Source: Candidatus Kaiserbacteria bacterium (GTDB lineage: Bacteria; Patescibacteriota; Minisyncoccia; Phycocordibacterales; UBA918). From it: a stretch of DNA of 64,000 nt. Below are positions 19,481 through 54,950 of the stretch, in pieces. How positions within the stretch are numbered: position 1 is the first letter of the stretch; the number at the start of each line of letters is the position of its first letter. A program made the position numbers and the translations under genes. Below the pieces are notes generated by a model that was given only the letters and a program-made list of their open reading frames with translations, had not been told where the DNA came from and did not search any database. The stretch lies in NCBI GenBank assembly GCA_016699245.1, contig CP064968.1:15654-79653 (forward strand). Reading direction: 5' to 3'.

Positions 19481-21529
19481 ATGAAGAACAAATACACAAT
19501 TGCATACATAGGTGCGATTATCGCACTCCCGGTAGCGCTCTTGTTCATCGTGCCAGCAGTTGCAACAACAAATGCATTCGACTGGAACGGTGGAAGTACT
19601 GCACAGTCTTCCTTTGCAGAAGCTGAGGCTGATGTATTCGGAGATGCGGACGCATGGACATGGGGTACAGGAACAGATGCAGGTGCAGAGGCTGAAACTG
19701 AGTCTGACGCATCAGCGCACGCATCCGCTTTTGGTAATGGTGCCGAGGCAGAAGCAGGTGCTAATACTGAAGACTACGCATGGTCATCAACAGGGACAGA
19801 TGATGCGGGAGTCACTTCTGGGGAAGCCTACGCCTGGAACACCGGCAGCGCGTACGCGTCTGCACACGTGCATACAAACACCTGTGGTCATGACTGGTGT
19901 GATTACCACGATTGTGATGATCACGACGAGTGTACATGGGGCTGTGAGGAGGAAGAAACTCATGCACCTACCTGTACCTTGAATGTTCTCCCTAGTTCAA
20001 TCGTAGAGGGGAATTCAGTAAAGCTTGTATGGGATACCAGTTACGCATCTGCAGTCTCGATTGCAGGAATTGGTTCTGTGGTACTTGATGGCTCTAAGGA
20101 CCTTACACCAACACAGTCACAGACCTATACGCTTACCGCAACAGGTGAAGGTGGTACGGCAATATGTGCAAAGTCAGTGCACGTAACTCCAAAAGAGGTG
20201 GTATATCCAGCGCCACTCTGTACATTCAGTATTAATCCTGAATCTATTACGGAAGGTGGATCAGCAACATTTACATGGGATACCACCAATGCAACCGCAG
20301 TGTCTATTGACACCATTGGAGCAGTCACTGTTGATGGTACAAAAGTTGTGTACCCAACACAGACAAAAAACTATGAACTTACCGCAACAGGAAATGGTGG
20401 TACGGTAAAGTGTACCGACTCCGTTCACGTAACACCAAAAGTGAATCCACCAACACAAGTAGTGAAGTGCGATTCGTTTACTGCAAGTAAATCACATATC
20501 AAGAAAGGAGAAGCAGTGGTACTCGCGTGGAATACTACTGACGCACAGAGTGTGCTCATCAACGAAGGTGTTGGTACAGTCGCACTCGATGGGAATACCA
20601 CGGTCTATCTCTTCCGTAGTACAACCTTCACTCTCACCGCGCGTAATGGTGCTGAAACCAATACGTGTCAGGTATCGGTCGGTGTTGATGCGGAAAATAC
20701 TACTTCCGGAACCACAACTACTATCACGAATGTAAACAATAACTACGTTGCGACAACTACTATCACGAATGTAAACAACAACAGCAACTATAACTACAAC
20801 TCATACAGTGGTGGAAGTAGCCGTAATAACAACAACAATGACGATGATGCTCGCTGTGATTCATTCACGGTAAGTGATTCTCGTGTCGAAGAAGGAGATA
20901 AAGTTACACTCCGTTGGAAGACTACCGACGCAGACGATGTTGATATTAACCAAGGTGTGGGTGATGTTGACGATGATGGAAGCGAAACAGTAACCATCGA
21001 TGAAGACACCACTTTTACCTTGACTGCGCGCGGTGATGGCGATACTGATACGTGTCGCGTGAGTGTCAAGGTAGACGAAGATGATGACAACAATGATAAC
21101 GACAAACTTCGTTGTGAATTTAGCGTTTCCGACAGTGCTATCCGCACCGGTGAGAGCGTTATCCTCTCATGGATAAACGACGCTACTGACCGCCTTGTCC
21201 TCAAGGACAACAACGGCAAGACACTTGCAGACTCAAAGAAGAATAGTGATATCGATGAGGATGTAGATTTCCTTACCGTAAAGCCATCAAAGACCACCAA
21301 GTATACCCTTGATGTCTATGACGGCAACAAGAAGGAAACGTGCGTGCTCAATGTTGAAGTTGGAAAGGGCACCGTGAGTGGTATCTCACTCTCACAGGTC
21401 CCCTACACAGGATTTGAAGCAGGGCCAATGCTTACCGCTATTTTCTACGGTGCAATCGCTCTCTGGGGTCTTGTACTCGCCTACGCGCTTGTCCTAAAAA
21501 AAAAGCACTCCCGGATGCTCTCAAAGTAA
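19481..21529 (+). CDS. Cell-surface protein with 5-6 Ig-like repeat domains and a C-terminal sortase-type sorting signal (non-canonical VPYTG)
   Basis: Signal/TM N-terminus and an Asp/Glu/Ala-rich low-complexity region. Cys-containing ~95-aa repeats (C..S...I.EG.S..L.W.T..A..V.I...G.V...G...V.P..T..Y.LTA.G.GG...C...V.V) occur about six times. The C-terminus SQVPYTGFEAGPMLTAIFYGAIALWGLVLAYALVLKKKHSR is motif + TM helix + basic tail. The sortase gene is directly upstream. Confidence 0.6.
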   Translation: MKNKYTIAYIGAIIALPVALLFIVPAVATTNAFDWNGGSTAQSSFAEAEADVFGDADAWTWGTGTDAGAEAETESDASAHASAFGNGAEAEAGANTEDYAWSSTGTDDAGVTSGEAYAWNTGSAYASAHVHTNTCGHDWCDYHDCDDHDECTWGCEEEETHAPTCTLNVLPSSIVEGNSVKLVWDTSYASAVSIAGIGSVVLDGSKDLTPTQSQTYTLTATGEGGTAICAKSVHVTPKEVVYPAPLCTFSINPESITEGGSATFTWDTTNATAVSIDTIGAVTVDGTKVVYPTQTKNYELTATGNGGTVKCTDSVHVTPKVNPPTQVVKCDSFTASKSHIKKGEAVVLAWNTTDAQSVLINEGVGTVALDGNTTVYLFRSTTFTLTARNGAETNTCQVSVGVDAENTTSGTTTTITNVNNNYVATTTITNVNNNSNYNYNSYSGGSSRNNNNNDDDARCDSFTVSDSRVEEGDKVTLRWKTTDADDVDINQGVGDVDDDGSETVTIDEDTTFTLTARGDGDTDTCRVSVKVDEDDDNNDNDKLRCEFSVSDSAIRTGESVILSWINDATDRLVLKDNNGKTLADSKKNSDIDEDVDFLTVKPSKTTKYTLDVYDGNKKETCVLNVEVGKGTVSGISLSQVPYTGFEAGPMLTAIFYGAIALWGLVLAYALVLKKKHSRMLSK

Positions 21530-21828: not shown

Positions 21829-21840
21829 GTGAGGAACAGC

Positions 21841-21872
21841 AAAACCCCGCGACTTCGCCGCGGGGTTTTGCT
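21841..21872 (+). terminator. Rho-independent terminator
   Basis: AAAACCCCGCG-ACTTCGC-CGCGGGGTTTTGCTGTT. Confidence 0.65.
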
Positions 21873-21947
21873 GTTCACGCCACATTTCCTAAGGTCTTGC
21901 TTCGGGCAAATAGGGAAGGCGAGTAACTTCTGTTGCTCCATGAGATA

Positions 21948-22259
21948 TTATCCCAGAGCCAAGTCCCGCACATACTGCGATACAGAATCGTACCCTTTTT
22001 CAATCGCTCTTTTTTCAATACGCGCCTTATCTGCTCCTGACACACGAAAACGAATGACGTCTGACTGTTTCCGCCCATACTCTTGTTCGGCAATAATTAG
22101 ATTAGGTAGATCGAGAATGACCGATGATAAATCTTCCTCAAGAAACTCTTGATCAATACATGCGCCTTTCGCAATAAAATGCACTGTCCCTGACTTTGTT
22201 TTTTCAAGCGTATAGGGATATATTTTATTTTTTATAGTTATACTTGCTTTTGTTTTCAT
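21948..22259 (-). CDS. hicB: HicB-like antitoxin (N-terminal HicB fold + C-terminal ribbon-helix-helix)
   Basis: The C-terminus IRFRVSGADKARIEKRAIEKGYDSVSQYVRDLAL is RHH-like. The start ATG overlaps the hicA TGA stop (ATGA coupling). Confidence 0.45.
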   Translation of the reverse strand: MKTKASITIKNKIYPYTLEKTKSGTVHFIAKGACIDQEFLEEDLSSVILDLPNLIIAEQEYGRKQSDVIRFRVSGADKARIEKRAIEKGYDSVSQYVRDLALG

Positions 22260-22504
22260 ATATTTCTTTTTATGAATACTTGTATCTGAGTGCGTATCTG
22301 CTGCTTGTAGAAATTTTTACACTCATTGTTGTGTACGGGGACAATAATATCGTGTTGTAACTGCGAGTGTTTCCACTTTACGTGACTGCCTTTTGCATAT
22401 ATTTTCTCAAAACCAACGTAAATAAGGATTTTTTCGATATCTGCATAACGAACATTCTGTGGTGAATGGTCAAACTTTTGAAGCAGTTTTTCAATCTGAC
22501 TCAT
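22256..22504 (-). CDS. hicA: HicA-like mRNA interferase toxin
   Basis: MSQIEKLLQKFDHSP...GFEKIYAKGSHVKWKHSQLQHDIIVPVH...KQQIRTQIQ matches the HicA pattern (GF..GSH..H...PVH). The internal ATG at 22504 is preferred over the longer ORF with a hydrophobic leader. Confidence 0.55.
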   Translation of the reverse strand: MSQIEKLLQKFDHSPQNVRYADIEKILIYVGFEKIYAKGSHVKWKHSQLQHDIIVPVHNNECKNFYKQQIRTQIQVFIKRNI

Positions 22505-22601
22505 TGTAACTACATTATATATAAATGTAGTTACAATGCAAGTATCAAAGCAGTGGTATATAATCAGGAAGGAGATAGAGAAGTATCTCAACTAATAAAT
22601 T

Positions 22602-22862
22602 ATGAAAAAAGATCCATTTGTATTAACGAAGGAAGAGCAGGAAATTGAGAACGCGTTTGCACAGGGTGCGTATTCCTCTGTCCCCAATCTCGCGGAAGAA
22701 AAAAAGAGATATGCGCAAATCGCACAAAATACCTTTGCACGAAACAAGATGATTACACTCCGTATCTCCGAACGCAATCTTCTCCGTGTGAAAGCAGCAG
22801 CCGCCCGTGAGGGACTGTCATACCAAACATACATCACTGCGCTTATTCAGAAGAATGTGTAG
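22602..22862 (+). CDS. BrnA / CopG-type type II antitoxin (apparently orphan)
   Basis: EEKKRYAQIAQNTFARNKMITLRISERNLLRVKAAAAREGLSYQTYITALIQKNV matches the CopG-antitoxin (BrnA) family pattern. No BrnT/DUF497 partner ORF is adjacent. Confidence 0.55.
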   Translation: MKKDPFVLTKEEQEIENAFAQGAYSSVPNLAEEKKRYAQIAQNTFARNKMITLRISERNLLRVKAAAAREGLSYQTYITALIQKNV

Positions 22863-22906
22863 TCGGGGTGGACAACACTACATAGAAACCTCTTGAAAGA
22901 AAAGTG

Positions 22907-23309
22907 ACAGAACTCTTTCTCTGAACTCTTTTCCTAAAATCCTTTCTCGTCACGAACTTTTGCCCCGCACGCATAAGGCCTGAGAACTAAAAGCAATGCT
23001 TTTAGTTCTCAGGCCTTTGCTCCGCTCGCCCAATGAGGGCTCCGCGAGGCGCTGCAAAAGTTGTAACTCAACGGATTTTAGTAAAAGAACTCGTTGACGT
23101 ACTGCTTTTATTCAGCCTGCCTAGATTCTTCTTATGAGCGAAGCAAATTAGAAAATCTTGGCTGTCGCCACATGCTCTCACAATGCAATGTGGTGACCAG
23201 GACGACCTCAGGGGAGGAGCGGAGCAAAGACCCAAAACCCGCATTCGTAGAATGAGGTTTTGGGTCTTATGCGTGCTGAAGAAAAGCAGTGCGGAAAAAG
23301 AGTTCTGTC
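22907..23309 (+). mobile_element. MITE-like / structured repeat element, copy C
   Basis: Left TIR GACAGAACTCTTTCTC...AAATCCTTTCTCGTCACGAACTTTTGCCCCGCACGCATAAG, right TIR CTTATGCGTGCTGAAGAAAAGCAGTGCGGAAAAAGAGTTCTGTC (its reverse complement). Internal hairpin arms and a central CTCAACGGATTTTAG...CTCGTTGACGTAC block are conserved with copies A, B and D. Confidence 0.5.
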
Positions 23310-23355
23310 TCCAATCTGTGCGATTCTAACCGAAAAAGAATTTTAGAGTTTGCGA

Positions 23356-26014: not shown

Positions 26015-29000
26015 ATGTATTCGTACATGCAACAGTCTGATGCCACAGTGAGTACCTCGCGCGACCAGTTCTTTTTGGAAAGAATAGGTTTTTTCTTTAC
26101 TCAGTGTTTTTTACATGCACGAGGAGTGCATCATAAGAAGGTCTCACTGATTGTTGCATTTGGACTTTTTTTGATAGTGGTTTGTTTTCCTTCGGCAAAG
26201 GCTGAGGCCGCAATTCAATTTGTCGGTTCTACGACTGCATCGGGCGATAATGCCGCATACAATCTCTCCCTCACCGGACTCACGGGGGGTATCTCGAGTA
26301 CTGCAGCACAGGATGATTTTGTTGTTGTGGTAAATACATACGTTGGTACTGCAGATGGTAATCCTGGCGTCGGCACAGCGGGCTATACAGAAATGGCCGA
26401 TTTGTATGCAAATAATAACAGAGACGTTAATTTCTCAGTGAATTATAAGTTTATGACGGCGACTCCCGATACAACAGTTTCTTGTAACGGGAGTGCAACG
26501 GCCGGTAGTGCATCGACCTGCCTCGCGATGGTTTTTCGGGGTGTGGATCTCACGACGCCGATGGATGTCGCATCGACGACGGCAACCAGTAACACTACAG
26601 AAGACGTTGATTGTCCCGCAATAACCCCCGTCACCAGTGGATCGTACGTACTCTGTACAGGAGGGGGTGCGGGAGCAAATGTCGACGCTGCGATTCCTGC
26701 AATTGCAGGGTACGCTCATGCATATCTGCAGTTTGATTCCACCAACTACACTTCTGCATCAGTTGGTGCGTATAAGGCATGGACATCAGGCGCCGAAGAT
26801 CCTGCAGCATTTGTTATGGACTTAGGTACACAGGCGAACAATTCAATGGCGGCACTCACTATGGCATTACGTGAACAACGCACCGTCTCCCTCTCCTCCG
26901 CCTCCAACCAAGTCTTTTCATACGCGCAAGCAACGACCACCATCAGCACCATCACCATTACCGATAACGTGGGCGCATCGGTCACCGCAGCAAACGACAT
27001 CCGCATCCGCATCGCCTCTACCTCCCTCACCATGAAGTGGGACACCACCGACACCACCGCCACCTTTGGCGGTACCGCCTCGGGCAAAGTATCAAACCCC
27101 GTCTCCTACGAAAACAATGGCACGACACTCGTAATACCTGTAGACACCAACTTTAGTGCAGGAGAGACACTCACGGTGAGTGGACTCTCCTTCACCCAGT
27201 TCCTCGGCACCAGTACCGCAACCACGGGGCTCAACATGTACCTCGCGGGAGGAAGTGACGCCGTGAGTGATGGTGCTGATGATAAGACGATAGTTATCTA
27301 TTCCGCCTTGCCCACCCTCACCACTCCCACCGCCACCGCCATTAGTTCCACTACCGCAACCCTCGGTGGCACCATCGTAAGTAACGGTGGGGGACTGACC
27401 GCCCGTGGTACCTGCTGGGGCACGACCCCATCCCCCGTCACCAACTGTGTTGCAGAAGGCGGTACAGGAACGGGTGTCTTCACGCAGGCACGCACCGGCC
27501 TTTCGCAGGCCACCTTCATCTACGCCCGTGCCTATGCCACAAACGCTACCGGCACCGCATACTCAAGTGACACCCTCTTCCTCACCGAAGGCACCTTCGT
27601 ACCGGGTACGGAGAATGTCACCGCAGTGGGAACGAGTACTGCAACGATAGGGGGGACGATCTTAGGTTCTTTCTCGACTTTTACGACTGCAACAGATACG
27701 CCAGAGGCAAACATAAAAGCCCTCACCGTTGACTCCGTAAATGGTGTTCTCTACGCAGGGTCAGATACGAATGGATACATCTACCGCTGTCTCCTTTCTA
27801 CAGGGTGTGACTCCACTGGAGATTTCACTATTGTATATGACACTGCGTCTACAGATATGTTCGCACTCACTATTGCGAGTAGTACTTTGTATGTAGCAGC
27901 AATAACAGGTGCAGGTTTTGGCACCATCCACCGATGCCTCCTCTCCACGGGGTGTGACGCTTCGGGTGATTTTACAGAAGTGCTTAGTAGTCCTGTTGAC
28001 TTCTTTTATTCGTTCACCGTTGATTCTGTTAACGGTGTCCTTTACGTAGGAGGAAGTTATGCTGGTACCCAGGAGTCTATCCATCGATGCCTCCTCTCCA
28101 CGGGATGTGAAGACTGGGGTGACTTCTCACAAGCGTATAGCACGTTTGTAAGTCAAAAAATTATCTCCCTGACCATCGCAAGTAGCACCCTCTACGCAGG
28201 AACGGACACAGAAGGTATTATCTACCGATGCCTCCTCTCTACAGACTGTGACGCTACGGTAGATTACACAACTGCTTTCGACACCACAGAAACAAAAATT
28301 CTTTCTCTCGCGTTTGACTCAGTTAACGGCGTCCTCCATGTAGGGACAAGTCCGAACGGCATCTTTTACCCATGTCTCCTCACCACGGGGTGTGACGCCT
28401 CGGGTGATTTTAATAGTCCCGCGAACACGGCCGATGACGAAATATACTCCATCATATTTTCAAGCACCACACGCTACGCAGCCACGGGTCCTCGTGGAGT
28501 CATCTACGCATGTTTCCTCCCCACGGGGTGTGATGGCCTCGGCGCCTTCACCACCGCAACAGACACCCCTGCGACCGCTATCTACGCTCTCGCCATCGAC
28601 TCCGCAAATAATGCGCTCTACGCAGGCTCGGGCGCAGACGGCATCATATACAAAAGCGAAATAGGTCCCGCATACCCCATCACCGAACGTGGCACCTGCT
28701 GGGGAACCAGCCCATCCCCCGTCACCAATTGCCTTGCCACCTCAGGGACGAGTACCGGCGCCTTCACCCATGCACGTACTGGTCTTCCGAGTGGCACTCT
28801 CATCTACGCGCGCGCGTATGTTACCTATGCATCAGGCACCGCATACTCAGCTGACATAAGTACCACCACTCTTAGTGTGCCACCAACCACCCTCTCCTCC
28901 GCCTCCAACCAAGTCTTTTCATACGCGCAAGCAACGACCACCATCAGCACCATCACCATTACCGATAACGTGGGCGCATCGGTCACCGCAGCAAACGACA

Positions 29001-29650
29001 TCCGCATCCGCATCGCCTCTACCTCCCTCACCATGAAGTGGGACACCACCGACACCACCGCCACCTTTGGCGGTACCGCCTCGGGCAAAGTATCAAACCC
29101 CGTCTCCTACGAAAACAATGGCACGACACTCGTAATACCTGTAGACACCAACTTTAGTGCAGGAGAGACACTCACGGTGAGTGGACTCTCCTTCACCCAG
29201 TTCCTCGGCACCAGTACCGCAACCACGGGGCTCAACATGTACCTCGCGGGAGGAAGTGACGCCGTGAGTGATGGTGCTGATGATAAGACGATAGTTATCT
29301 ATTCCGCCTTGCCCACCCTCACCACTCCCACCGCCACCGCCATTAGTTCCACTACCGCAACCCTCGGTGGCACCATCGTAAGTAACGGTGGGGGACTGAC
29401 CGCCCGTGGTACCTGCTGGGGCACGACCCCATCCCCGTCACCAACTGTGTTGCAGAAGGCGGTACAGGAACGGGTGTCTTCACGCAGGCACGCACCGGCC
29501 TTTCGCAGGCCACCTTCATCTACGCCCGTGCCTATGCCACAAACGCTACCGGCACCGCATACTCAAGTGACACCCTCTTCCTCACCGAAGGCACCTTCGT
29601 ACCGGGTACGGAGAATGTCACCGCAGTGGGAACGAGTACTGCAACGATAG
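26015..29650 (+). CDS. Giant secreted repeat protein, 5' segment (about 1140 aa in frame before a 1-nt homopolymer deletion)
   Basis: N-terminal signal/TM (KKVSLIVAFGLFLIVVCFPSAKAEAA). Contains FN3-like modules (TCWGT.PSPVTNC...GTGTG.FT.ARTGL...IYARAYATNA.GTAYS) and ~45-aa YRCLLSTGCD...GDFT repeats. An 874-bp segment (26891-27764) is duplicated perfectly at 28892-29763 except for C5->C4 at 29432-29436 and G6->G5 at 29650-29654. The ORF ends at a TAG created by the frameshift. Confidence 0.75.
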   Translation: MYSYMQQSDATVSTSRDQFFLERIGFFFTQCFLHARGVHHKKVSLIVAFGLFLIVVCFPSAKAEAAIQFVGSTTASGDNAAYNLSLTGLTGGISSTAAQDDFVVVVNTYVGTADGNPGVGTAGYTEMADLYANNNRDVNFSVNYKFMTATPDTTVSCNGSATAGSASTCLAMVFRGVDLTTPMDVASTTATSNTTEDVDCPAITPVTSGSYVLCTGGGAGANVDAAIPAIAGYAHAYLQFDSTNYTSASVGAYKAWTSGAEDPAAFVMDLGTQANNSMAALTMALREQRTVSLSSASNQVFSYAQATTTISTITITDNVGASVTAANDIRIRIASTSLTMKWDTTDTTATFGGTASGKVSNPVSYENNGTTLVIPVDTNFSAGETLTVSGLSFTQFLGTSTATTGLNMYLAGGSDAVSDGADDKTIVIYSALPTLTTPTATAISSTTATLGGTIVSNGGGLTARGTCWGTTPSPVTNCVAEGGTGTGVFTQARTGLSQATFIYARAYATNATGTAYSSDTLFLTEGTFVPGTENVTAVGTSTATIGGTILGSFSTFTTATDTPEANIKALTVDSVNGVLYAGSDTNGYIYRCLLSTGCDSTGDFTIVYDTASTDMFALTIASSTLYVAAITGAGFGTIHRCLLSTGCDASGDFTEVLSSPVDFFYSFTVDSVNGVLYVGGSYAGTQESIHRCLLSTGCEDWGDFSQAYSTFVSQKIISLTIASSTLYAGTDTEGIIYRCLLSTDCDATVDYTTAFDTTETKILSLAFDSVNGVLHVGTSPNGIFYPCLLTTGCDASGDFNSPANTADDEIYSIIFSSTTRYAATGPRGVIYACFLPTGCDGLGAFTTATDTPATAIYALAIDSANNALYAGSGADGIIYKSEIGPAYPITERGTCWGTSPSPVTNCLATSGTSTGAFTHARTGLPSGTLIYARAYVTYASGTAYSADISTTTLSVPPTTLSSASNQVFSYAQATTTISTITITDNVGASVTAANDIRIRIASTSLTMKWDTTDTTATFGGTASGKVSNPVSYENNGTTLVIPVDTNFSAGETLTVSGLSFTQFLGTSTATTGLNMYLAGGSDAVSDGADDKTIVIYSALPTLTTPTATAISSTTATLGGTIVSNGGGLTARGTCWGTTPSPSPTVLQKAVQERVSSRRHAPAFRRPPSSTPVPMPQTLPAPHTQVTPSSSPKAPSYRVRRMSPQWERVLQR

Positions 29651-29654
29651 GGGG

Positions 29655-32600
29655 ACGATCTTAGGTTCTTTCTCGACTTTTACGACTGCAACAGATACGC
29701 CAGAGGCAAACATAAAAGCCCTCACCGTTGACTCCGTAAATGGTGTTCTCTACGCAGGGTCAGGAGGTAGTGGCATCATCTACCGCTGTCTCCTTTCTAC
29801 AGGGTGTGATTCCACAGGAGACTTCGTTATTGCGTATGACACTACACATTCAAATATCTCCTCTCTTGCCATTGCGAGTAGTACTCTGTTTGTTAACGGC
29901 TTTACAAGCACAGACAATACTGTTGTGTACCGCTGTCTCCTCTCCACGGGGTGTGACGCCTCGGGTGATTTTACGACTGCATGGACACCATCTTCTCCTC
30001 AATCAAGCCGTACATTAGTTGCAGATTCAGTAAACAACATACTCTACATGGGGGGTCAAGATAATTCAGATCAATTTACAATTTATCGATGTGCCCTTTC
30101 TTCGGGATGTGACTTCCAGACTGACTTCACGACTGCATATGCACCTGCCGCACAGATAGACGTCCATTCCCTCACCATTGCCAGTAGCACGCTCTACGCA
30201 GGCTCGGGTAATGGTGGTAATATTTACCGCTGTCTCCTCTCCACGGGGTGTGATGCTGATGTGGATTTTACCCTTGCATACAACACCACAGAATCGCAGA
30301 TTTATTCCCTCACGAGTGACTCAGCTAATGGTGTTCTGTATGTAGGGACGAGCCCGAACGGCATCATCTACCGATGCCTTCTCACGACAGGTTGTGACGC
30401 CTCGGGTGACTTCACGACGGCAACAGACACCCCACAGACAGATATCTACGCTCTCACCATCTCAAGTAGCACCCTCTACGCAGGCACGGGCGCAAACGGT
30501 GTCATATATCAGTGCCTCACCTCCACAGGCTGTGATTCTACAAATGACTTCACCACCGCAACAGACACTCCCGCTACCACTATAAACGCTCTCGTCATCG
30601 ATTTCGCGAATAGTTCTATTTACGCAGGCTCCGGTGCTACGGGTATCATATACAAAACCAGTATAGGTTCCGCATACCCCATCACCGAACGTGGCACCTG
30701 CTGGGGCACGAGTCCCAACCCCGTCACCAACTGCCTTGCCACCTCAGGGACAAGTACTGGTGCCTTCACCCATGCACGCACTGGCCTTCCCCAGGCTACC
30801 CTCATCTACGCTCGAGCGTATGTTACCTACGCATCAGGCACCGCATACTCAGCCGACGTAAGCACTACCACCCTCGGCGTCGCAGCACCCACCCTCTCCT
30901 CAGGAGCCAACCAAGCCTTTTTCTATGGTCAAGCAACCACCACCATAAGTACCATCACCATTACCGACACTCCTGGCGGACTCGTCACCGCAGCAAACGA
31001 CATCCGCATCCGCATCGCCTCTACCTCCCTCACCATGAAGTGGGACACCACCGACACCACCGCCACCTTTGGCGGTACCGCCTCGGCCAAAGTATCAAAC
31101 CCTGTCTCCTACGAAAACAACGGCACCACACTTGTGATTCCTGTTGACACCAACTTTGGAACAGGGGACACCCTCACCATAGACGGACTTTCTTTTTCAC
31201 AGTTCCTTGGGGTGAGTACCGCCACCATCGGGCTCAACATATACCTCGCGGGGGCAAGTGACGCCGTGAGTGATGATGCCGATGATAAGACGATGAGTAT
31301 TAGTTCCACCACCCCTACCGTTACCACCCCCACTACCACTGCTATAGGCCTTAATAGTGCAACTCTCGGCGCTACCATTACGAGTGACGGTGGGGGAACA
31401 CTGAGTGCGCGCGGTACCTGCTGGGGCACCAGCGCATCCCCCGTCACCAACTGTACCGCAGAAGGCGGTACGGGAACGGGTGTCTTTACGCAGGCACGCA
31501 CCGGTATGGCGACGGGTACTCTCTACTACTATCGTGGATATGCGACAAATGCCTCGGGTACGACATATTCGGCAGATGGTACCTTTAGCACCAATGCTGT
31601 TCCCGTACTCACTACTCCCACTGCTACTGCCGTGGGTTCAAGTACCGCTACCCTCGGTGCTACCCTTGTTTCCACAGGTACCAACACTATTAATGCTCGC
31701 GGTACCTGCTGGGACACGAATTCGTCTCCCACCATCAACTGTCTTGCAGAAGGTGGTACGGGAACAGGTGCTTTCACGCAGGCACGTACAGGTCTGACAG
31801 CGGGCACACTGTACTACTATCGTGGGTATACGACATATACTGACGGTGCAAGTGTCACCCGTACCGCATATTCAGCAGATGGCACATTTGTAAGTTCAAC
31901 CACCCCTACACTCACCACCCCCACCGTTACTGCCGTCAGTTTTACAACCGCAACATTCGGCGCCAATATCACGAGTGACGGCGGAGCACCACTGAGTGCC
32001 CGTGGTACCTGCTGGGGCACCAGTGCGTCCCCGGTGACCAACTGTCTTGCAGAAGGCGGTACGGGAACGGGTGTCTTTACGCAGGCACGCACCGGTCTCC
32101 CCCAGGGCACACTCATTTACGCCCGCGCATACGCAACAAACGCATACGGTACTTCATACTCAGCCGATATAAGTACTACCACCAGCATCTCCACGAGTGA
32201 TCTCATCATCTCCGGTACCCTCTATAGCGACGAAGGGGTCACCACGATAAACGGAGGGAAGACCATTGCTCTCGCTATCGGCACCACCACCCCCTCAGTC
32301 CACACCACTACCTCCAATGGTTCTGGCGTATGGACTGCTACCATCCCCACCGGCCACACCATCGGCACCTCTACCCCTATCCTCGCTTGGGTAGATAATG
32401 ACGGCACCACCCGTGCCGCACTCCTCACGAAGGCAACATCCACCTCTAATATCTCTGGCCTTAGTCTCTATAAAGATAGAGTGATTGTGTCGCATGAGGC
32501 AACAAGTGGTACCTCAACGACACTCACTGACATGTCCTTCTATGACAACGACAACGACAGTGACATTCAATACAATGCGACAACAACAAGCGCAGGGCTT

Positions 32601-35600
32601 GTATTAAACGCTGGCAACGAACTCCATATCCAAACAGGGAAGTCCTTCACTCCCCTAGGCGCCGTCACCATACAGGGGAACGCCGGCACCGGCACCGATG
32701 GTTCACTTCACCTTCCTGCAAGTAGCATCTACACCGCAGGAGGCACCACCACCCTTGCCGGCAATTTCACCGCATCATCCTCCGCAACCTTTACCCCTGG
32801 CACCCACACCCTCACCTTTAATGCAACGACCACCGGAAAGAGTATTGATGTACCACTCGCTACCCTTGGTAACACCACCTTCAATGGAGCAGGTGGTGCA
32901 TGGGCGTTTGCATCAGCAGCCACCACCTCAGCCCTTACCATCACCGCCGGCACCCTAACTGCTCCCGCCACCAGTCTTACCATCCTCGGTAACTACCAGA
33001 ACAGTGGCACCTTCACTCACAACAACGCCACGGTCACCATCGCCTCCACCACCGCCGCACAGGGTATCATGGGTACTGCCACCGGTACGTCGGCCTTCAG
33101 TACGCTCCGCATCATCGGTGCTACCACCACTGCTCCAACATCAGGCCTCGTCGGTAAATGGATGTTTGAGGAGGGAAGTGGCACGACGGTGCGGGATGCG
33201 AGTGGGGGTGGGAATACGGGGACGCTCAATGGAACTCCTTCTTGGATTTCTGAGAATAGGGGTAAGGCAATTTCGCTCAATGGAACAACAGATTATGTAG
33301 CTATTCCTAACTTGATACAGACTCATCGTAGTGACATTACTATCGCCACGTGGTTCAAGACGACCACAACGGGTGTAATTGCGGGATATCAAGCTGGTAT
33401 GGTGGGAAGTGGTCCCAGTAGTTATGTTCCCGCTATCTATATCGGTACCGATAATAAAATTTACGCTCAACTATGGGATGGTGCGACACACCCAATCACA
33501 ACTTCCGGAACGTATACCGACGGTGCTTGGCACCATGTTGCGCTCGCAGTCTCAGGCGGTAATAGCCAATCCCTCTACGTTGACGGTTCGTTTGTGGGGA
33601 TTCTCAGTAATGCAATTACTGATTTTGGTGCAACCTATTCGCAGTTTGGTGCTGGGTACACCACAGGGTGGACCAACGCGTCTGGTGGGTTGACTTATTT
33701 TGCTGGTTCTCTTGATGATAATCGAATCTACAACCGCGCGCTCACCGCGAACGAAATCAGCGACCTCTATAACGAACGTCCAAAAGTCTTCTCACAAAAC
33801 GCCTCTACCACCAACCTCATCATTGAATCCGGTGTCGTGTCCGCACCACCATCTCTGAGTATCGCCGGCGACTACCAGAACGCAGGCGCCTTCCTCGCGA
33901 ACGCCGGCACCACCACCTTCAACGGCACCACCACCTTTAGTGGCGTGAGCGCCCAGACCCTCGGTGGCACCATGACGGGCGCAAGCGCCTTTGGAAACGT
34001 GGAGTTTACCGGCGGAGGACTCAAGTCTTTTGCGACGACGACTACGAATGCAAGTACATCTAATTTTATGGTGGATGCCGGCGCGACGGTCGTCGCGCCG
34101 GAAAACCTCTCCGTCTCTGGTCAATACACCAACAACGGCACGTCCTCAAACCCAGGAGGGAAGGTGTGGACCAGCCGCACCGCCGCCGCCTACAACATCT
34201 GGCAATCCGTCACCTACGGCAATGGTCTCTTTGTGGCGGTGTCTGGTACTGGCGCTGGCACAATCAACGACCGCGTCATGACTTCCCCTGACGGAATCAC
34301 CTGGACCCCCCGCACCGCCGCTACCAATAACTACTGGTACTCCGTCACCTACGGCAACGGCCTCTTTGTGGCAGTGGCTGGTTCCGGCACCATAAGCGAC
34401 AAAGTCATGACTTCCCCTGACGGCATCACCTGGACCCCTCGCACCGCCGCCGCTGACAACACCTGGCGCTCCGTCACCTACGGCAATGGGGTCTTCGTGG
34501 CGGTGTCTGGTACTGGTGCCGGCACCATCAACGACCGCGTCATGACTTCCCCTGACGGCATCACCTGGACCCCTCGCACCGCCGCCGCCAACAACTCTTG
34601 GTGGTCCGTCACCTACGGCAATGGCCTCTTTGTGGCGGTGGCTGAGACTGGCACCATCAACGACCGCGTCATGACCTCCCCCGACGGCATCAACTGGACT
34701 GCCCAGACCGCCGCTGCCAACAACAACTGGGTCTCCGTCACCTACGGCAATGGCCTCTTTGTGGCAGTGGCTTTTTCTGGCACCATCAATGACCGCGTCA
34801 TGACCAGCCCCGACGGCATCACCTGGACCCCCCGCACCGTTGTCGCCAACAACACCTGGGTCTCCGTCACCTACGGCAATGGCCTCTTTGTGGCGGTGTC
34901 TGGTACTGGAGCTGGTACCGTGAACAACCGCGTCATGACCTCCCCCGACGGCATCAACTGGACCGCCCAGACCGCCGCCGCCAATAACGAATGGGTCTCC
35001 GTCACCTACGGCAATGGCCTCTTTGTGGCGGTGGCGTACTCTGGTTTCAATCGCGTCATGACAAGCGCGGTCGGTACCACCACCTTTAGTGGCGTGAGCG
35101 CCCAAACCCTCAATGGCACCATGACCGGCGCGAGCGCCTTCGGCAACGTCGCCTTTACCAACACCAGCGCTACCACCACCTTTGCAAGTAACGCGAGCAC
35201 CTCTAATTTCACCACTGCATCAAACACAATCGTCGTTGCTCCATCCAGCCTTTCTCTTTCCGGAGACTACACAAACAACGGCCGTTTCGTCGCCGGCACC
35301 GGCACCACCACCTTTAATGGCAATACGACACAGACCGCCACCGGCACCATGACGGGTACGAGTGCGTTTAGCAACCTCACTATTACGAACAGTGTCGCCT
35401 CCACCACCTTTGTTACTCCACTGACGGTAAGTGGCAAATTCACTGCCACGACCCCCGGCACTATCATCATCCTCAGTTCACAGGGCACCACCACCTTCGC
35501 TACTGCAGGAATCATTGGTAGCAGTACAGAGAGCATCACTCTCCGCGCCACCACCCCTGGCACGCAAGCACCCCTTGATATAGAGGGCACATACACTCTT

Positions 35601-38600
35601 TCGTATATAAACGTCAAAGATTCCAATGCCTGTGATAACGCCATTGCCCTCAGTGGTACCGGTCTCACCGACAGTGGCAATAACACGTGTTGGACTTTTG
35701 CCTCAGGTTCAGTGATTGTACTTTCCGGTATCCTCTATAGCGACGAAGGGACAACACCTATTACCGCGCCAAAGACATTGGGTATCATGGTGGGTACATC
35801 GACACTGAGTCTCCATAGTACGACCTCTGCAGCATCAGGTGCTTGGAGTTTTACCGTACCTGCAGGGCATACCATTGTTCAGGGGACTCCTATTCTCGTC
35901 TGGGTAGACAATGACGGTTCTACGCGGGCGTCGCTCGTCACCAAAGCAGATTCATCATCCGCCGATATATCAGGACTTAATCTGTATCAAAATAGGGTGA
36001 TTGTCTCGCATGAGGGTGCTGAAGCCATCACGCTCTTAGCTATGACTCGGTATAATAATAGTGATGATGCTGATATTCAGTTTGAAGCGGTTGATGCTGA
36101 GGGATATATAGGACAAATCTTTTCAGGGAACAAATTGTATATCAATGCAGGGAAAACATTTTCTCCTGATGGAGAGTTAACCATAGGTGCCAACGCCAGT
36201 TCCTCAAGTGTCGATGGTGCCCTCCACATAGCGAGTGGTGCTACATATAAGCAAATGATGCCAAATAATAATTGGACCTATATCGGAGGTTCACTCACTG
36301 CATCATCTACGGCAACTATCATAAATAATGGTACATTTCAATTCACTGCGTCTACCACGGGGAAGAGTATTAACGCCACTCAGCCACTTGGTAAGGTCAC
36401 TTTCGCAAACACCGCGAGCATGTCCTTTGCCACGAGTGCCACGACAACCAACCTCACTATCAACGCAGGTGCGTCGGTTGTTGCACCCGCTAGCACGCTC
36501 ACGATTCTTGGTGACTATACCAACAACGGCACCTTTACCCACAATGGGGGTACGATACTCTTCGCAAGCACCACACAGGCACAGTTTTTGCGTGGTACGC
36601 TCTCGGGTACCTCTGCCTTTGGTACACTTAGTTCTGTGGGTAATACGACCACCTCTCCATCTGGACTCATAGGGAAGTGGAACCTCGATGAAGGATCGGG
36701 GACAGAAGCATACGATTCATCGGGAAATGGTAATACCGGTACGCTCACCAATGGTCCAACCTGGAAAGCAGGTAAAGTCGGCCAGGCCGTTGATCTTGGT
36801 GGAGATGATGATTATATCAATGTGGGGTCTCCAGCGTCGCTCGATGATGTCACCCAAAAAACCATCACCGCATGGATAAATCCGGTTACCCTTGGTGATA
36901 GTGATTATGGGCGAATCGCTGATAAAGATGCAGGCACAGCGACTGGGTGGTTGTTTTATGTGTCGAACGGAGACAATGTGAGTAGTTTGCGCTTTGGACA
37001 TTATTTTGCAGGAGGTCTTGGTTTTTGGAATACTGGAAACAACACTATTACTACCGGAGGGAACACATGGCAACATGTCGCGGTGACCTACGACAACAGT
37101 TCGGCAAGCAATGATCCAGTCTTTTACATAAACGGTGTATTGAGTCCTCTTGCGTTTGACACTAATAATTCGGGTGCAGCGAATAGTGATGCGGCACACA
37201 ACCTCTGGTTCGGAGACCGTGCGGGGAATGATCGTTCTTTCAATGGAGACATGGACGATATCCGTATGTACAATCGAATTCTTACCGCCGGAGAAATCGC
37301 TACGATATACAATGAACGTCCAAAGTTTATCAATGCGAATGCTTCGACCACCAATCTCTCGATAGACTCGGGCGTGGTAGCCCTGTCATCAACCAGCCTC
37401 TCTATTGCGGGTAACTACACCAACTCGGGCACCCTCGCAGTAACGGGCACCACGACCTTTAACGGCAATACGACACAGACCGCCACCGGCACCATGACCG
37501 GCTCAAGTGCATTTAAGAACGTGGAAATACTCAATACGTCTGCTCCTACTATCTTCGGCGCACCCTTTGCCGTCACCGGCCACTTCAAGGCAACGTCGCC
37601 AAGTATTAGTATGAAGTTTGCAGAAAACGCTACCACATCCCTCAATACCGCTACCCTGTATGGTACCTCAGGCAACAAGGTACAACTTCGCTCAACGACT
37701 GAGGGGACACGTTTTGGTATTGAAATAAGTGGTGCATATGATATTTCGTACGTTGATGTGAAGGATAGTAGTGGCTCCACAACGCTCGGCAATATCACCG
37801 CCACCACATCAGTGGATTCAGGTAATAATAATAGATGGACTTTTATCGCTGATCCCGTACCATCCCTCTCCTCCGCCTCCAACCAGTCCTTCTACTACTC
37901 TGAACCCACCACCACGATAAGTACCCTGACCATCACCGACACCCCCGGCGGACTTGTCACCGCCACAAACGACATCCGCATCCGCATCGCCTCTACCTCT
38001 CTCACCATGAAGTGGGACACCACCGACACCACCGCCACCTTTGGCGGTACCGCCTCGGGCAAAGTATCAAACCCCGTCTCATACGAAAACAACGGCACGA
38101 CACTCGTAATACCTGTTTCGAATGACTTTAGCGCCGCAGACACCCTCACCGTAGACGGGCTTTCTTTCACCCAGTTCCTCGGGGTGAGTACCGCTACCAC
38201 TGGACTCAACATATACCTCGGTGGCGCAAGTGACGCCGTGAGTGACGATGCAGACGATAAGACGATGAGCATCAGTGGACTCGGAACCCTCTTGAATCAC
38301 ACGAGTGGCCAAGTGAGTGACAATATCAATTCCACCACAGAGACAGGCATCCCACTCTTTGCCTTCAATCTCTCTTCAGTGGGTGAAAACAGCACCATTT
38401 CAAACCTCACCCTCCGTATCACGGGAGCCAATGGAGTGAGTACCGGTGACCTCTCAAACTTCGCACTCTACCGTGACAACAACAACAGCAAGACATTCGA
38501 CGCAGGAGATACCGCCGTGGGCGGTTCCCCAAGTGTTACCCTCACGGGTGACAACGGCACCGTGACCTTTAGCACACCATTCAGTGCAACCTCCACCGCA

Positions 38601-39377
38601 CGCAACTATGTACTCGTAGGCTCCGTAGACAATGTACGCGTGACCGAGGGCTTCACACTCAACCTGAGTGCCATCGACGTAGCACTCACCGGAGACACCA
38701 CCGGTCTCACCACGCTCCTCAGCACGCTCTCTGGTGTACAACACATGAGAGGGGGCGGTGGTGGCAGTAGTGGTGGCGGAGTACACGCCGGTATTGGGGG
38801 TGCACCTCCAGCGGGTGACGGAATACGTGGCGGTGGCGGAGGTGGTGGAGGAGGTGGCGTCGACCCCGACAGTGGCACCCCGATAGGCAATGAACCCGGC
38901 TTCAATGCACCAAGTGGGCAGGGTAGCCCACAGGGTGGATGGACGAATGGTACGAATGTATACACCTCAAATGGTGTGTACACGACGACGAGTGGCAATG
39001 GCTCGCGCCATACCTTCACCACCTTTGGATTTGATGTACCACTCAACAACACCATAGTGGGTGTTGAGGTAAAGGTAGAGGCATCGGGCAGTACGGCAGC
39101 AGGGACTATCTCAATAGGGCTCTCCTGGAATAACGGCTCAACACTCACCTCACTGAAGACCACGAGCACCCTCGGACTCACCGACACGGTGTTCGTTCTC
39201 GGAGGATCATCGGACAATTGGGGTCGCACCTGGACTCCCCTCGAATTCGCAAACGGTAGTTTTGCAATTGAAATTATTGGCAATACCTCTGCAAACACCC
39301 TCTCTGTGGATGCCATACAAGCAAAGGTATACCACCAAGCCACGGGCGGTGGCGGTGGTGGTGGCGGGGCGATTTAG
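29655..39377 (+). CDS. Giant secreted repeat protein, 3' segment (about 3240 aa) with two LamG/concanavalin-like domains, propeller-like repeats and a Gly-rich tail
   Basis: The frame of the 29925 (GTG) ORF is homologous and open back to 29655, directly after the G-tract. Contents: YRCLLSTGCD repeats x8; FN3-like modules x6; LamG_3-like domains at 33140-33780 and 36660-37330 (LVGKWMFEEGSGTT..D.SG.GNTGTL...TDY..I...I...ITIA.W.K....W.HVA...........LYV.G........IYNR.LTA.EI..LYNE); eight tandem 40-aa VWTSRTAA..N.W.SVTYGNGLFVAV.G.G...DRVMTSPDGI.WT repeats (34150-35050); a ~3.5-kb internal duplication; Gly-rich C-terminus. Stop TAG at 39375. Confidence 0.8.
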   Translation, partial: TILGSFSTFTTATDTPEANIKALTVDSVNGVLYAGSGGSGIIYRCLLSTGCDSTGDFVIAYDTTHSNISSLAIASSTLFVNGFTSTDNTVVYRCLLSTGCDASGDFTTAWTPSSPQSSRTLVADSVNNILYMGGQDNSDQFTIYRCALSSGCDFQTDFTTAYAPAAQIDVHSLTIASSTLYAGSGNGGNIYRCLLSTGCDADVDFTLAYNTTESQIYSLTSDSANGVLYVGTSPNGIIYRCLLTTGCDASGDFTTATDTPQTDIYALTISSSTLYAGTGANGVIYQCLTSTGCDSTNDFTTATDTPATTINALVIDFANSSIYAGSGATGIIYKTSIGSAYPITERGTCWGTSPNPVTNCLATSGTSTGAFTHARTGLPQATLIYARAYVTYASGTAYSADVSTTTLGVAAPTLSSGANQAFFYGQATTTISTITITDTPGGLVTAANDIRIRIASTSLTMKWDTTDTTATFGGTASAKVSNPVSYENNGTTLVIPVDTNFGTGDTLTIDGLSFSQFLGVSTATIGLNIYLAGASDAVSDDADDKTMSISSTTPTVTTPTTTAIGLNSATLGATITSDGGGTLSARGTCWGTSASPVTNCTAEGGTGTGVFTQARTGMATGTLYYYRGYATNASGTTYSADGTFSTNAVPVLTTPTATAVGSSTATLGATLVSTGTNTINARGTCWDTNSSPTINCLAEGGTGTGAFTQARTGLTAGTLYYYRGYTTYTDGASVTRTAYSADGTFVSSTTPTLTTPTVTAVSFTTATFGANITSDGGAPLSARGTCWGTSASPVTNCLAEGGTGTGVFTQARTGLPQGTLIYARAYATNAYGTSYSADISTTTSISTSDLIISGTLYSDEGVTTINGGKTIALAIGTTTPSVHTTTSNGSGVWTATIPTGHTIGTSTPILAWVDNDGTTRAALLTKATSTSNISGLSLYKDRVIVSHEATSGTSTTLTDMSFYDNDNDSDIQYNATTTSAGLVLNAGNELHIQTGKSFTPLGAVTIQGNAGTGTDGSLHLPASSIYTAGGTTTLAGNFTASSSATFTPGTHTLTFNATTTGKSIDVPLATLGNTTFNGAGGAWAFASAATTSALTITAGTLTAPATSLTILGNYQNSGTFTHNNATVTIASTTAAQGIMGTATGTSAFSTLRIIGATTTAPTSGLVGKWMFEEGSGTTVRDASGGGNTGTLNGTPSWISENRGKAISLNGTTDYVAIPNLIQTHRSDITIATWFKTTTTGVIAGYQAGMVGSGPSSYVPAIYIGTDNKIYAQLWDGATHPITTSGTYTDGAWHHVALAVSGGNSQSLYVDGSFVGILSNAITDFGATYSQFGAGYTTGWTNASGGLTYFAGSLDDNRIYNRALTANEISDLYNERPKVFSQNASTTNLIIESGVVSAPPSLSIAGDYQNAGAFLANAGTTTFNGTTTFSGVSAQTLGGTMTGASAFGNVEFTGGGLKSFATTTTNASTSNFMVDAGATVVAPENLSVSGQYTNNGTSSNPGGKVWTSRTAAAYNIWQSVTYGNGLFVAVSGTGAGTINDRVMTSPDGITWTPRTAATNNYWYSVTYGNGLFVAVAGSGTISDKVMTSPDGITWTPRTAAADNTWRSVTYGNGVFVAVSGTGAGTINDRVMTSPDGITWTPRTAAANNSWWSVTYGNGLFVAVAETGTINDRVMTSPDGINWTAQTAAANNNWVSVTYGNGLFVAVAFSGTINDRVMTSPDGITWTPRTVVANNTWVSVTYGNGLFVAVSGTGAGTVNNRVMTSPDGINWTAQTAAANNEWVSVTYGNGLFVAVAYSGFNRVMTSAVGTTTFSGVSAQTLNGTMTGASAFGNVAFTNTSATTTFASNASTSNFTTASNTIVVAPSSLSLSGDYTNNGRFVAGTGTTTFNGNTTQTATGTMTGTSAFSNLTITNSVASTTFVTPLTVSGKFTATTPGTIIILSSQGTTTFATAGIIGSSTESITLRATTPGTQAPLDIEGTYTLSYINVKDSNACDNAIALSGTGLTDSGNNTCWTFASGSVIVLSGILYSDEGTTPITAPKTLGIMVGTSTLSLHSTTSAASGAWSFTVPAGHTIVQGTPILVWVDNDGSTRASLVTKADSSSADISGLNLYQNRVIVSHEGAEAITLLAMTRYNNSDDADIQFEAVDAEGYIGQIFSGNKLYINAGKTFSPDGELTIGANASSSSVDGALHIASGATYKQMMPNNNWTYIGGSLTASSTATIINNGTFQFTASTTGKSINATQPLGKVTFANTASMSFATSATTTNLTINAGASVVAPASTLTILGDYTNNGTFTHNGGTILFASTTQAQFLRGTLSGTSAFGTLSSVGNTTTSPSGLIGKWNLDEGSGTEAYDSSGNGNTGTLTNGPTWKAGKVGQAVDLGGDDDYINVGSPASLDDVTQKTITAWINPVTLGDSDYGRIADKDAGTATGWLFYVSNGDNVSSLRFGHYFAGGLGFWNTGNNTITTGGNTWQHVAVTYDNSSASNDPVFYINGVLSPLAFDTNNSGAANSDAAHNLWFGDRAGNDRSFNGDMDDIRMYNRILTAGEIATIYNERPKFINANASTTNLSIDSGVVALSSTSLSIAGNYTNSGTLAVTGTTTFNGNTTQTATGTMTGSSAFKNVEILNTSAPTIFGAPFAVTGHFKATSPSISMKFAENATTSLNTATLYGTSGNKVQLRSTTEGTRFGIEISGAYDISYVDVKDSSGSTTLGNITATTSVDSGNNNRWTFIADPVPSLSSASNQSFYYSEPTTTISTLTITDTPGGLVTATNDIRIRIASTSLTMKWDTTDTTATFGGTASGKVSNPVSYENNGTTLVIPVSNDFSAADTLTVDGLSFTQFLGVSTATTGLNIYLGGASDAVSDDADDKTMSISGLGTLLNHTSGQVSDNINSTTETGIPLFAFNLSSVGENSTISNLTLRITGANGVSTGDLSNFALYRDNNNSKTFDAGDTAVGGSPSVTLTGDNGTVTFSTPFSATSTARNYVLVGSVDNVRVTEGFTLNLSAIDVALTGDTTGLTTLLSTLSGVQHMRGGGGGSSGGGVHAGIGGAPPAGDGIRGGGGGGGGGGVDPDSGTPIGNEPGFNAPSGQGSPQGGWTNGTNVYTSNGVYTTTSGNGSRHTFTTFGFDVPLNNTIVGVEVKVEASGSTAAGTISIGLSWNNGSTLTSLKTTSTLGLTDTVFVLGGSSDNWGRTWTPLEFANGSFAIEIIGNTSANTLSVDAIQAKVYHQATGGGGGGGGAI

Positions 39378-39463: not shown

Positions 39464-40138
39464 TTACTCAAGGGTTACACCATCAAGGTGAAGTATGTTA
39501 AATTTTTTGAGGTGCGACTGAAATGCTTTTGTATAGCCTGCTGAGCCTCCAAAATATTTGAGAAAAAATGTTCGGTCAGTAACTGAACCAAAATTACTTT
39601 TGCCACTGTAGTCGAGATGACTACTCCATTTGTATTTTGAAAGTAATTCCTCGACGTGTTGTGCAGAAGGAATTTCTCCCTCGCGCCATTTTGGTGTGGT
39701 GAGGTCAAGTGGATTGAGGTGAATATAAAAGGGGAGATACATGAAGTGTGCATCTGAGGTGATACGTATGGATTTGTACTTACCTTGAAAGAGTCCACCA
39801 GAGCGTTCATATCGCTCATTAAAATACTTTGCGTACCCCATATTTATCTTTTTCATAAAGAGAGACACCCCACCTTCAACGAGAGGGGAGAGCATGAGGT
39901 GGTAGTGGTTTGGCATGAGACAAAAGAAGTGTATCTGCACCAGCCGTTCACCTTCACCTGCTAATGACGGACATCGGATGTCCGTCATTTTTGTGTTTCG
40001 TCGATGGTTGGTGTCGCTTCTTCCTTGAACGTTAAACGTATATAAATCATGAATAAATCTGGCATAATCCCTTGAATCAAGGAATATCGTACGCTTCTCA
40101 ACTCCTCTGTTGAGTACGTGAAAAAACTCTGTATGCAT
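39464..40138 (-). mobile_element. REP-associated tyrosine transposase (RAYT; IS200/IS605-like Y1 HuH transposase) gene
   Basis: 224 aa with FFHVLNRGVEKRTIF, the HuH motif (LMPNHYHLML), the catalytic-Tyr region (GLFQGKYKSIRI) and YIHLNP...WSSH, all matching the RayT/COG1943 pattern. The gene is flanked on both sides by the 25-bp palindrome and carries one copy in-frame inside the ORF. Confidence 0.75.
39964..39988. repeat. REP-like palindrome copy 3, located inside the RAYT coding sequence
   Basis: A perfect ATGACGGACATCGGATGTCCGTCAT copy. On the minus strand it is translated in-frame as ..KMTDIRCPSL.. within a ~25-aa segment absent from typical RAYT homologues (between the FL..L helix and the HuH motif). 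Confidence 0.65.

Positions 40139-54559: not shown

Positions 54560-54950
<391 letters not shown>

Follow-up and report, generated by a model that had tools for sequence, protein, structure and literature searches.

Within the 64,000-nt stretch of contig CP064968 analysed here (the window), the reading frame of a giant repeat-protein gene is broken inside one copy of a duplicated segment, which raises the question of whether the break belongs to the DNA of the organism or to its assembly. The gene is split in the GenBank annotation, where the downstream part (ORF2) is listed as a separate protein (QQR64991.1).

A duplicated block with two contracted tracts

The features of the duplicated block and its relatives within the giant gene are as follows.

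26889..27764, + strand: copy 1 of the identical block (876 nt), in frame, with C5 at 27432-27436 and G6 at 27650-27655
28890..29763, + strand: copy 2 of the identical block (874 nt), a 100% match to copy 1 except for two 1-nt deletions
29433..29436, + strand: C4 tract of copy 2, where copy 1 and two diverged copies have C5; loss of the C moves the reading from frame 2 to frame 1
29648..29650, + strand: TAG stop closing the very probably artefactual ORF1 (26015-29650), met after 72 out-of-frame codons
29650..29654, + strand: G5 tract of copy 2, G6 in copy 1; the second deletion, with the homologous reading passing from frame 1 to frame 0
30892..31760, + strand: third, diverged block copy (~77-99% identity per 100 nt), with C5 kept at the homologous site
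37864..38163, + strand: fourth block copy, partial and diverged, covering the block start only (83% identity)

Global alignment of 26891-27764 with 28892-29763 yields two differences, each a 1-nt gap in copy 2, and no substitutions over 874 bp. Both differences are confined to homopolymer runs and change their length by one (C5 to C4 and G6 to G5), as the first-pass annotation had claimed. Its block ends at 27764 and 29763 hold, but the true starts lie two bases before the 26891 and 28892 that it gave, at 26889 and 28890, and the C4 tract that it placed at 29432-29436 begins one base later, position 29432 being a T. The double frameshift that it described, with the TAG stop and the homologous protein resuming beyond it, is likewise found, and the frame order along the split gene is 2, 1, 0, with the homologous protein picked up in frame 0 right after the G tract.

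Three tracts of at least 5 nt occur in the block, and the two contracted in copy 2 include the longest: no G/C run of the block exceeds the G6, and the C5 is one of two runs that rank next in length. Both changes are deletions. They are spaced 218 bp apart, ~3.4 kb into the 13.4-kb gene, and the G tract lies 113 nt from copy-specific sequence. Copies 1 and 3 read straight through with C5, as does copy 1 with G6, while a counterpart of the G-tract site is absent from copy 3. The motif that the C deletion destroys, CWGTxxSPVTNC, is preserved at all six of the other matched sites.

The first two units and the third copy form a tandem array with a period of ~2,002 bp. Outside the block, units 1 and 2 of the ~2-kb repeat share only 53-91% identity, against which the identity of the 874-876-bp block is far above chance. 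This segment is identical, or very nearly so, in the first two units and was most likely homogenised by gene conversion.

The giant gene and its counterparts in relatives

Insertion of one C and one G restores a single 13,365-nt ORF of 4,454 codons with no internal stops, which fuses the ORFs at 26015-29650 and 29925-39377.

26015..39377, + strand: giant surface-protein gene, one gene after the two-base repair (4,454 aa)

The 3,268 codons (9.8 kb) past the break remain open up to the natural end of the gene. The encoded protein has an N-terminal hydrophobic leader, FN3-like CWGT...SPVTNC domains, two Laminin_G_3 domains and repeats of ~48 aa (YRCLLSTGCD) and 43 aa (WTPRTAA...VMTSPDGI), while no curated family in Pfam or NCBIfam was matched by the repeat unit. 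The gene is almost certainly one intact ORF of ~13.4 kb, and its 4,454-aa product is predicted to be a repeat protein that is secreted or located at the surface.

The locus is a variable island between thrS and dnaE, accessory and fast-evolving. In a relative with 93% identity at thrS, the locus holds a 3,128-aa gene that is intact and has the same N-terminal leader, although the interior of the gene differs almost entirely, and in a relative with 83% thrS identity the giant gene is missing between dnaE and thrS. The contig of another close thrS relative stops 840 bp upstream of thrS, at the expected start of the giant gene. The closest GTDB genome identified by an rpoB scan (L001) belongs to a different species (rpoB 93% at the amino acid level); on its 57-kb contig the fetched locus begins far downstream of the giant gene, and the contig, judged by colinearity, should end near the 3' end of the gene.

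Copies for direct comparison were sought more widely. The corrected block protein retrieved only domain-level relatives from the JGI metagenomes (44-64% identity over about 100 residues), and the corrected repeat unit, used as the query in a large protein search, gave only partial matches, mostly at 33-55% identity (maximum 65%) and nearly all spanning under half of the query length. The block had no same-species copy in the collections searched, and exact-sequence look-ups with ORF1 and thrS returned no encoding contig, hence no alternative assembly of the same strain with which to compare the tracts.

Errors in the window and the origin of the contractions

The first-pass annotation had also reported homopolymer trouble at 54560-54950 and in rpoC, and both sites are indeed disrupted.

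54560..54950, + strand: homopolymer-inflated junk of ~390 bp, with runs such as G41, G35, G19 and C15, in place of most of a 162-aa NUDIX-like gene
62765 (A), 63087 (A) and 63346 (G), + strand: three +1 homopolymer insertions in rpoC, relative to the intact ortholog in L001

The NUDIX-like gene is intact in L001. As written, rpoC, an essential single-copy gene, changes frame three times, and its N-terminal part is named "hypothetical protein" in GenBank (QQR65008.1); once the three insertions are deleted, a stop-free 968-aa beta-prime subunit results, which aligns with those of nine relatives. Two further candidates for frameshifts were rejected: the ORF containing an A9 run at 21496 ends normally in a sortase-signal-like tail, and gyrB, pheT, pheS, prfA, dnaE, rpoB and thrS have essentially full Pfam domain coverage.

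Errors in the CP064968 assembly are clustered. The rpoC insertions fall within 582 bp and are grouped in the same way as the pair in the giant gene, and a uniform spread was rejected, as two errors in 874 bp at the observed density of the window have a P of about 0.001-0.002. Local enrichment of errors must therefore be assumed if the giant-gene contractions are to be explained in this way; clustering of this kind is evident in rpoC, and repeats are known from the literature to produce it. The causes of the two clusters may differ, since rpoC has insertions in 3-4-nt runs and the giant gene has deletions in 5-6-nt runs.

Longer homopolymers are under-called by R9.4.1 Nanopore sequencing, deletion being the usual direction of error. 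CP064968 is the metagenome-assembled genome (MAG) Damh_18-Q3-R51-60_MAXAC.235_fly, a single circular contig of 1,054,716 bp assigned to Kaiserbacteria in the SILVA taxonomy (Singleton et al. 2021, PMC8012365, Supplementary Data 3), with coverages of 33.5x (Illumina) and 32.5x (Nanopore) and a reported polymorphic rate of 1.3% (PMC8012365). It was produced by Nanopore R9.4.1 sequencing, Flye assembly (--nano-raw), Racon, medaka (r941 model) and a further round of Racon with Illumina reads (PMC8012365). Homopolymer indels in Oxford Nanopore consensus sequences lead to frameshifts, and polishing is needed for bins below 40x (Sereika et al. 2022, PMC9262707). Reads furthermore prefer the error-free instance of a repeat, which leaves the error site without reads, and most errors that remain after polishing are located in repeats (Wick & Holt 2022, PMC8812927).

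The contractions from C5 to C4 and from G6 to G5 are thus very probably leftover R9.4.1 consensus errors that are absent from the DNA of the organism. Under-calling would have shortened both tracts in copy 2, and short-read polishing with one placement per read would have left this copy unrepaired, as correct Illumina reads from either copy would align better to the correct copy 1 and may have starved copy 2 of coverage. This reading is favoured by the origin of the sequence, a Nanopore R9.4.1 Flye assembly polished with singly placed short reads, by the same class of error in the essential rpoC gene and the junk region of the same window, by the presence of C5 in copy 1 and two diverged copies and the loss with C4 of the CWGTxxSPVTNC motif, and by the intact 3,128-aa gene in the relative. 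The presence of indels only, with no substitutions and with the 9.8-kb frame downstream intact, fits a consensus error better than mutation, while the shortness of the tracts and the occurrence of two contractions within one gene argue against both decay and phase variation. The earlier proposal of an error in a collapsed repeat, which was preferred there to phase variation, is supported as regards a polishing or assembly error but not as regards collapse, as both copies are resolved and only copy 2 is affected. The starvation mechanism is less compelling at the G tract, which is close enough to copy-specific sequence that some uniquely anchored Illumina reads could have corrected it. Nor is repeat starvation the sole mode of failure in this assembly, given the errors in the non-repeat rpoC gene. 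Strain-level variation in tract length is a conceivable counterpoint, in view of the polymorphic rate of the MAG.

Competing explanations and known systems

If both deletions were instead real and fixed, the gene would have been recently truncated or pseudogenised, leaving the 1,211-aa product of ORF1 as a secreted N-terminal fragment and 9.8 kb as an untranslated remnant. Homopolymer indels are also the commonest natural frameshift mutations, and the ORF is disrupted by two shifts relative to copy 1. Loss of this accessory gene would be tolerable, judging by the variable interior in one relative and the missing gene in the other, and ORF2 is annotated by GenBank as a protein of its own. This outcome is nevertheless unlikely, given that two indels stand beside zero substitutions in 874 bp, that the signs of relaxed selection (more stops and substitutions) are lacking from downstream codons that show no decay, and that the earliest start codon of ORF2 is GTG 29925, upstream of which no Shine-Dalgarno-like sequence was found, nor was a signal peptide on ORF2. 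Moreover, the impossible frameshifts of rpoC render any frameshift in this assembly weak evidence of biology.

Surface-type repeat proteins are often phase-variable, and the contracted tracts are G/C homopolymers in a MAG whose population is polymorphic, so that they might be contingency repeats which toggle the surface protein by slipped-strand mispairing, the assembly having caught the OFF state. Short tracts switch occasionally, as for the C6 of Bordetella bvgS, an exception to the >8 nt used in computational screens for C/G contingency tracts (PMC1891110). At 5 and 6 nt, the tracts here are below the typical switch length (usually 7-9 or more G/C), and such runs are ordinary in the window, which contains 23 C5 runs (12 in the giant gene) and eight G6 runs (three in the giant gene); with the junk excluded, its longest G/C run is 6 nt. 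Both tracts are off together, such that a return to ON would require two independent +1 events, they lie far into the gene rather than near the usual 5' end or promoter, and copy 1 keeps the same tracts at full length. It is very unlikely that the contractions are real and that short C5 and G6 slippage sites in a recombination-homogenised repeat silence or truncate a giant host-attachment protein of a Kaiserbacteria episymbiont of the Candidate Phyla Radiation (CPR), and the toggling of contingency repeats with an OFF state caught in the assembly is even less probable. Slippage switching at this locus, if true, would make this the first surface gene of the CPR to be described as phase-variable.

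Programmed recoding, in which two -1 ribosomal frameshifts or transcriptional slippage would yield the complete protein from the sequence as it stands, has practically no likelihood: the sole point in its favour is the immediate continuation of the homologous protein in the shifted frame after each tract, and it is effectively refuted by copy 1, which has the same sequence plus one base per tract and needs no recoding; the X XXY YYZ slippery heptamer is absent at both sites, C4 and G5 are far shorter than the runs known to provoke polymerase slippage, which typically takes 9 or more A/T, and a pair of recoding sites spaced by 218 nt within a duplication has no known precedent.

Real frameshifts would have a bearing on surface variation in episymbiotic CPR bacteria, but the evidence points the other way. 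The main value of the residual-error reading is one of caution, as leftover Nanopore errors of this kind would mislead searches of CPR genomes for pseudogenes, phase-variable loci or giant surface proteins.

Compared with known systems, the repaired gene resembles the giant CPR/Patescibacteria surface proteins with homogenised tandem units in its length, N-terminal leader, tandem repeats and occurrence in a ~1-Mb Kaiserbacteria genome, as well as in the rapid turnover of its interior between close relatives, and nothing unusual for this class was found in it. The exact segment with sharp borders inside divergent units is like concerted evolution by gene conversion. As in the contingency loci of Neisseria, Haemophilus, Campylobacter and Bordetella, an intragenic G/C homopolymer in a putative surface protein is altered by a one-base change that truncates the product; unlike in those loci, the tracts are short, disrupted in a pair, situated mid-gene, not over-represented and hosted by an error-prone assembly. 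The known residual errors of R9.4.1 assemblies in repeats differ from the present case in that polishing would be expected to fix a G tract so near to unique sequence, and in that the CP064968 errors are found outside repeats as well. The contractions are nonetheless like the errors that remain in R9.4.1 assemblies after short-read polishing (PMC8812927, PMC9262707) in consisting of single-base homopolymer changes with frameshifts and split gene calls, and in sparing one of the two copies of an exact repeat, with unmistakable errors of the same class nearby.

Reading frame of the giant gene

The giant gene, which codes for a surface-type repeat protein, is deposited as two open reading frames, ORF1 and ORF2. 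The first-pass annotation had described segment 26891-27764 as duplicated at 28892-29763 apart from two 1-nt losses, and global alignment bears this out: two indels, both single-base gaps in copy 2, are the only differences, and there are no substitutions. The true extent of the identical block, and the tracts concerned, are as follows.

26015-39377 (+), giant gene; ORF1 26015-29650, ORF2 29925-39377
26889-27764 (+), identical block, copy 1 (tandem unit 1)
27432-27436 (+), C5 tract, copy 1
27650-27655 (+), G6 tract, copy 1
28890-29763 (+), identical block, copy 2 (tandem unit 2)
29433-29436 (+), C4 tract, copy 2
29650-29654 (+), G5 tract, copy 2

The first contracted tract had been recognised correctly in kind but placed one base off, as read from the bases, while the position of the second stands. 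The double shift of frame followed by resumption of the homologous protein, also proposed at first pass, is confirmed, with frame 2 open to the C tract, frame 1 between the tracts and frame 0 past the G tract. ORF1 does end at the TAG at 29648-29650, and as annotated includes 72 trailing out-of-frame codons. Addition of one C and one G yields a single ORF of 13,365 nt (4,454 codons) with zero internal stops, and after the break 3,268 codons stay open as far as the natural stop. The split of the giant gene is very probably not biological.

Repeat architecture and genomic setting

A ~2,002-bp unit occurs three times in tandem (starts 26889, 28890 and 30892), with the block as its initial ~875 bp, and a fourth, partial block copy lies at 37864. 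Across the block, identity between units 1 and 2 is 100%, after which it drops sharply to 53-91% per 100 nt, while unit 3 shares 77-99% identity per 100 nt with the block in the first ~400 nt and 53-84% further on. Such a profile is what a recent gene-conversion tract within diverged tandem repeats should produce. The predicted protein carries an N-terminal hydrophobic leader, FN3-like domains with a CWGTxxSPVTNC motif, YRCLLSTGCD repeats of ~48 aa, WTPRTAA...VMTSPDGI repeats of 43 aa and two Laminin_G_3 domains; its repeat unit matches no family in Pfam or NCBIfam. A motif search found CWGTxxSPVTNC or a close variant kept at six of seven sites. Loss of the motif through the C deletion is limited to copy 2, and the C5 state is kept in copy 1 and two diverged copies.

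An intact giant gene coding for 3,128 aa occupies the same position in a relative with 93% identical thrS (GCA_964570795.1; L091 1-9196, - strand). The N-terminal leader is common to both proteins and the C-terminal ~435 aa are 77% identical, while the ~2,600-aa interior is almost wholly different, with other repeats in place, which shows that modules turn over to an extreme degree among congeneric species. In the more distant L095 locus (83% thrS identity) dnaE adjoins thrS directly and the giant gene is absent. An IS200-like Y1 transposase gene (39467-40147, -) lies immediately 3' of the giant gene, and both lie between thrS and dnaE, which places the giant gene in a variable island; together, the interior swap and the absence in L095 mark the locus as a fast-evolving accessory island. 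Of the short-read contigs from closer relatives, one stops 840 bp upstream of thrS, at the expected start of the giant gene, and another breaks ~1.6 kb into the gene. A large protein search and a JGI metagenome scan found no same-species sequence of the block.

Several further features were observed in the window. A 171-bp tandem repeat (8058-8435; 2.2 copies, 98% identical) starts within the 3' end of tRNA-Thr (8003-8076) and may stem from an integration event at the tRNA or from duplication of a terminator region. Two pairs of dispersed intergenic repeats of 90-100 bp, ~91-92% identical (14872-14970/23217-23314 and 22937-23027/57105-57195), have one arm 3' of thrS and the other 5' of gyrB or of rpoB. 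A sortase gene (18504-19229, within 18501-21529) adjoins a gene (19481-21529) for a 682-aa protein without a Pfam match, the C-terminus of which (VPYTG, a hydrophobic stretch and KKK) looks like a sortase sorting signal. On the minus strand of the gene-poor region 21830-23350 lie small ORFs resembling HicA and NikA, which look like what is left of a toxin-antitoxin or mobilisation system; relative L094 has a comparable HicA/NikA pair next to thrS.

Source assembly and errors elsewhere in the window

The thrS product is 100% identical to QQR64989.1 and ORF2 (3,150 aa) corresponds to QQR64991.1; trmD, pheT and the sortase are likewise exact protein matches. CP064968 is listed as Damh_18-Q3-R51-60_MAXAC.235_fly, a single circular contig of 1,054,716 bp (Singleton et al. 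2021, PMC8012365, Supplementary Data 3), assigned to Paceibacteria, UBA9983_A, UBA2163 (SILVA: Kaiserbacteria), with coverages of 33.5x (Illumina) and 32.5x (Nanopore) and a polymorphic rate of 0.0126. The "fly" genomes were assembled from Nanopore R9.4.1 reads with Flye --nano-raw; polishing used Racon, medaka and, last, a further Racon step on Illumina reads that minimap2 had mapped (PMC8012365).

Homopolymer trouble had been noted at first pass at 54560-54950 and in rpoC, and both cases hold. The rpoC gene (from 61092) changes frame three times, and comparison with the intact ortholog in the closest GTDB genome (L001, CAZNWG010000003.1; rpoB 93% aa identity) places 1-nt homopolymer insertions at 62765 (A), 63087 (A) and 63346 (G). 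Without these bases rpoC encodes 968 aa with no stops and aligns cleanly with nine relatives. Since a beta-prime subunit frameshifted three times would not be survivable for a bacterium, the insertions are sequence errors, and they account for the GenBank label "hypothetical protein IPH92_00285" on the truncated product of the first 568 aa (QQR65008.1). The ~390 bp at 54560-54950 contain inflated homopolymers (G41, G35, G19, C15, A11 and others) and replace most of a 162-aa NUDIX-like gene directly upstream of trmD, intact in L001 at 7734-8219; agreement with L001 persists over the first ~39 residues. Here the consensus of the deposited genome has failed grossly, though locally. Domain coverage is essentially full in most other genes, including gyrB, pheS, pheT, prfA, dnaE, rpoB and thrS; errors are accordingly few and occur in clusters, and a uniform error rate across the window was rejected.

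Origin of the contractions

Both contractions are very probably residual assembly or polishing errors, the reading preferred at first pass, which gains support from the errors in rpoC and at 54560-54950, the Nanopore source and the lack of substitutions. A fixed, real frameshift, for which a fast-evolving accessory island leaves some room, is improbable, as two indels without a substitution separate the copies, the downstream codons remain open, and ORF2 has no start ahead of the GTG at 29925, no upstream Shine-Dalgarno-like sequence and no leader peptide. Slipped-strand phase variation, the alternative raised at first pass, is very unlikely: screens for phase-variable C/G tracts use a cut-off of >8, with C6 in bvgS a rare exception (PMC1891110), whereas the present tracts are 5-6 nt, a length commonplace in the window, where the maximum outside 54560-54950 is 6. 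Both tracts are moreover off simultaneously and mid-gene, and the equivalent copy-1 tracts are unaltered. Programmed recoding is excluded for practical purposes, as the same sequence is read through without a shift in copy 1 and a slippery heptamer is absent from both the C-tract and the G-tract site.

The contracted runs are G6, the longest G/C run of the block, and C5, one of the two that follow it in length. A starvation step, in which reads go to the error-free copy of the repeat and leave the faulty copy uncovered, may lie behind the persistence of the copy-2 contractions through short-read polishing, although it would be weaker for the G tract, merely 113 nt from copy-specific sequence. 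The practical use of the two-contraction case is as a warning that CP064968, a publicly available "complete" CPR genome, contains errors. Gene-breaking homopolymer indels persist in Nanopore consensus, and short-read polishing is needed for bins below ~40x (PMC9262707); repeats defeat short-read polishers that give each read one placement, and post-polishing residual errors lie mostly in repeats (PMC8812927). With an exact 874-bp repeat, one copy clean and the other with contracted runs, the giant-gene locus presents the configuration of such repeat-polishing failure.
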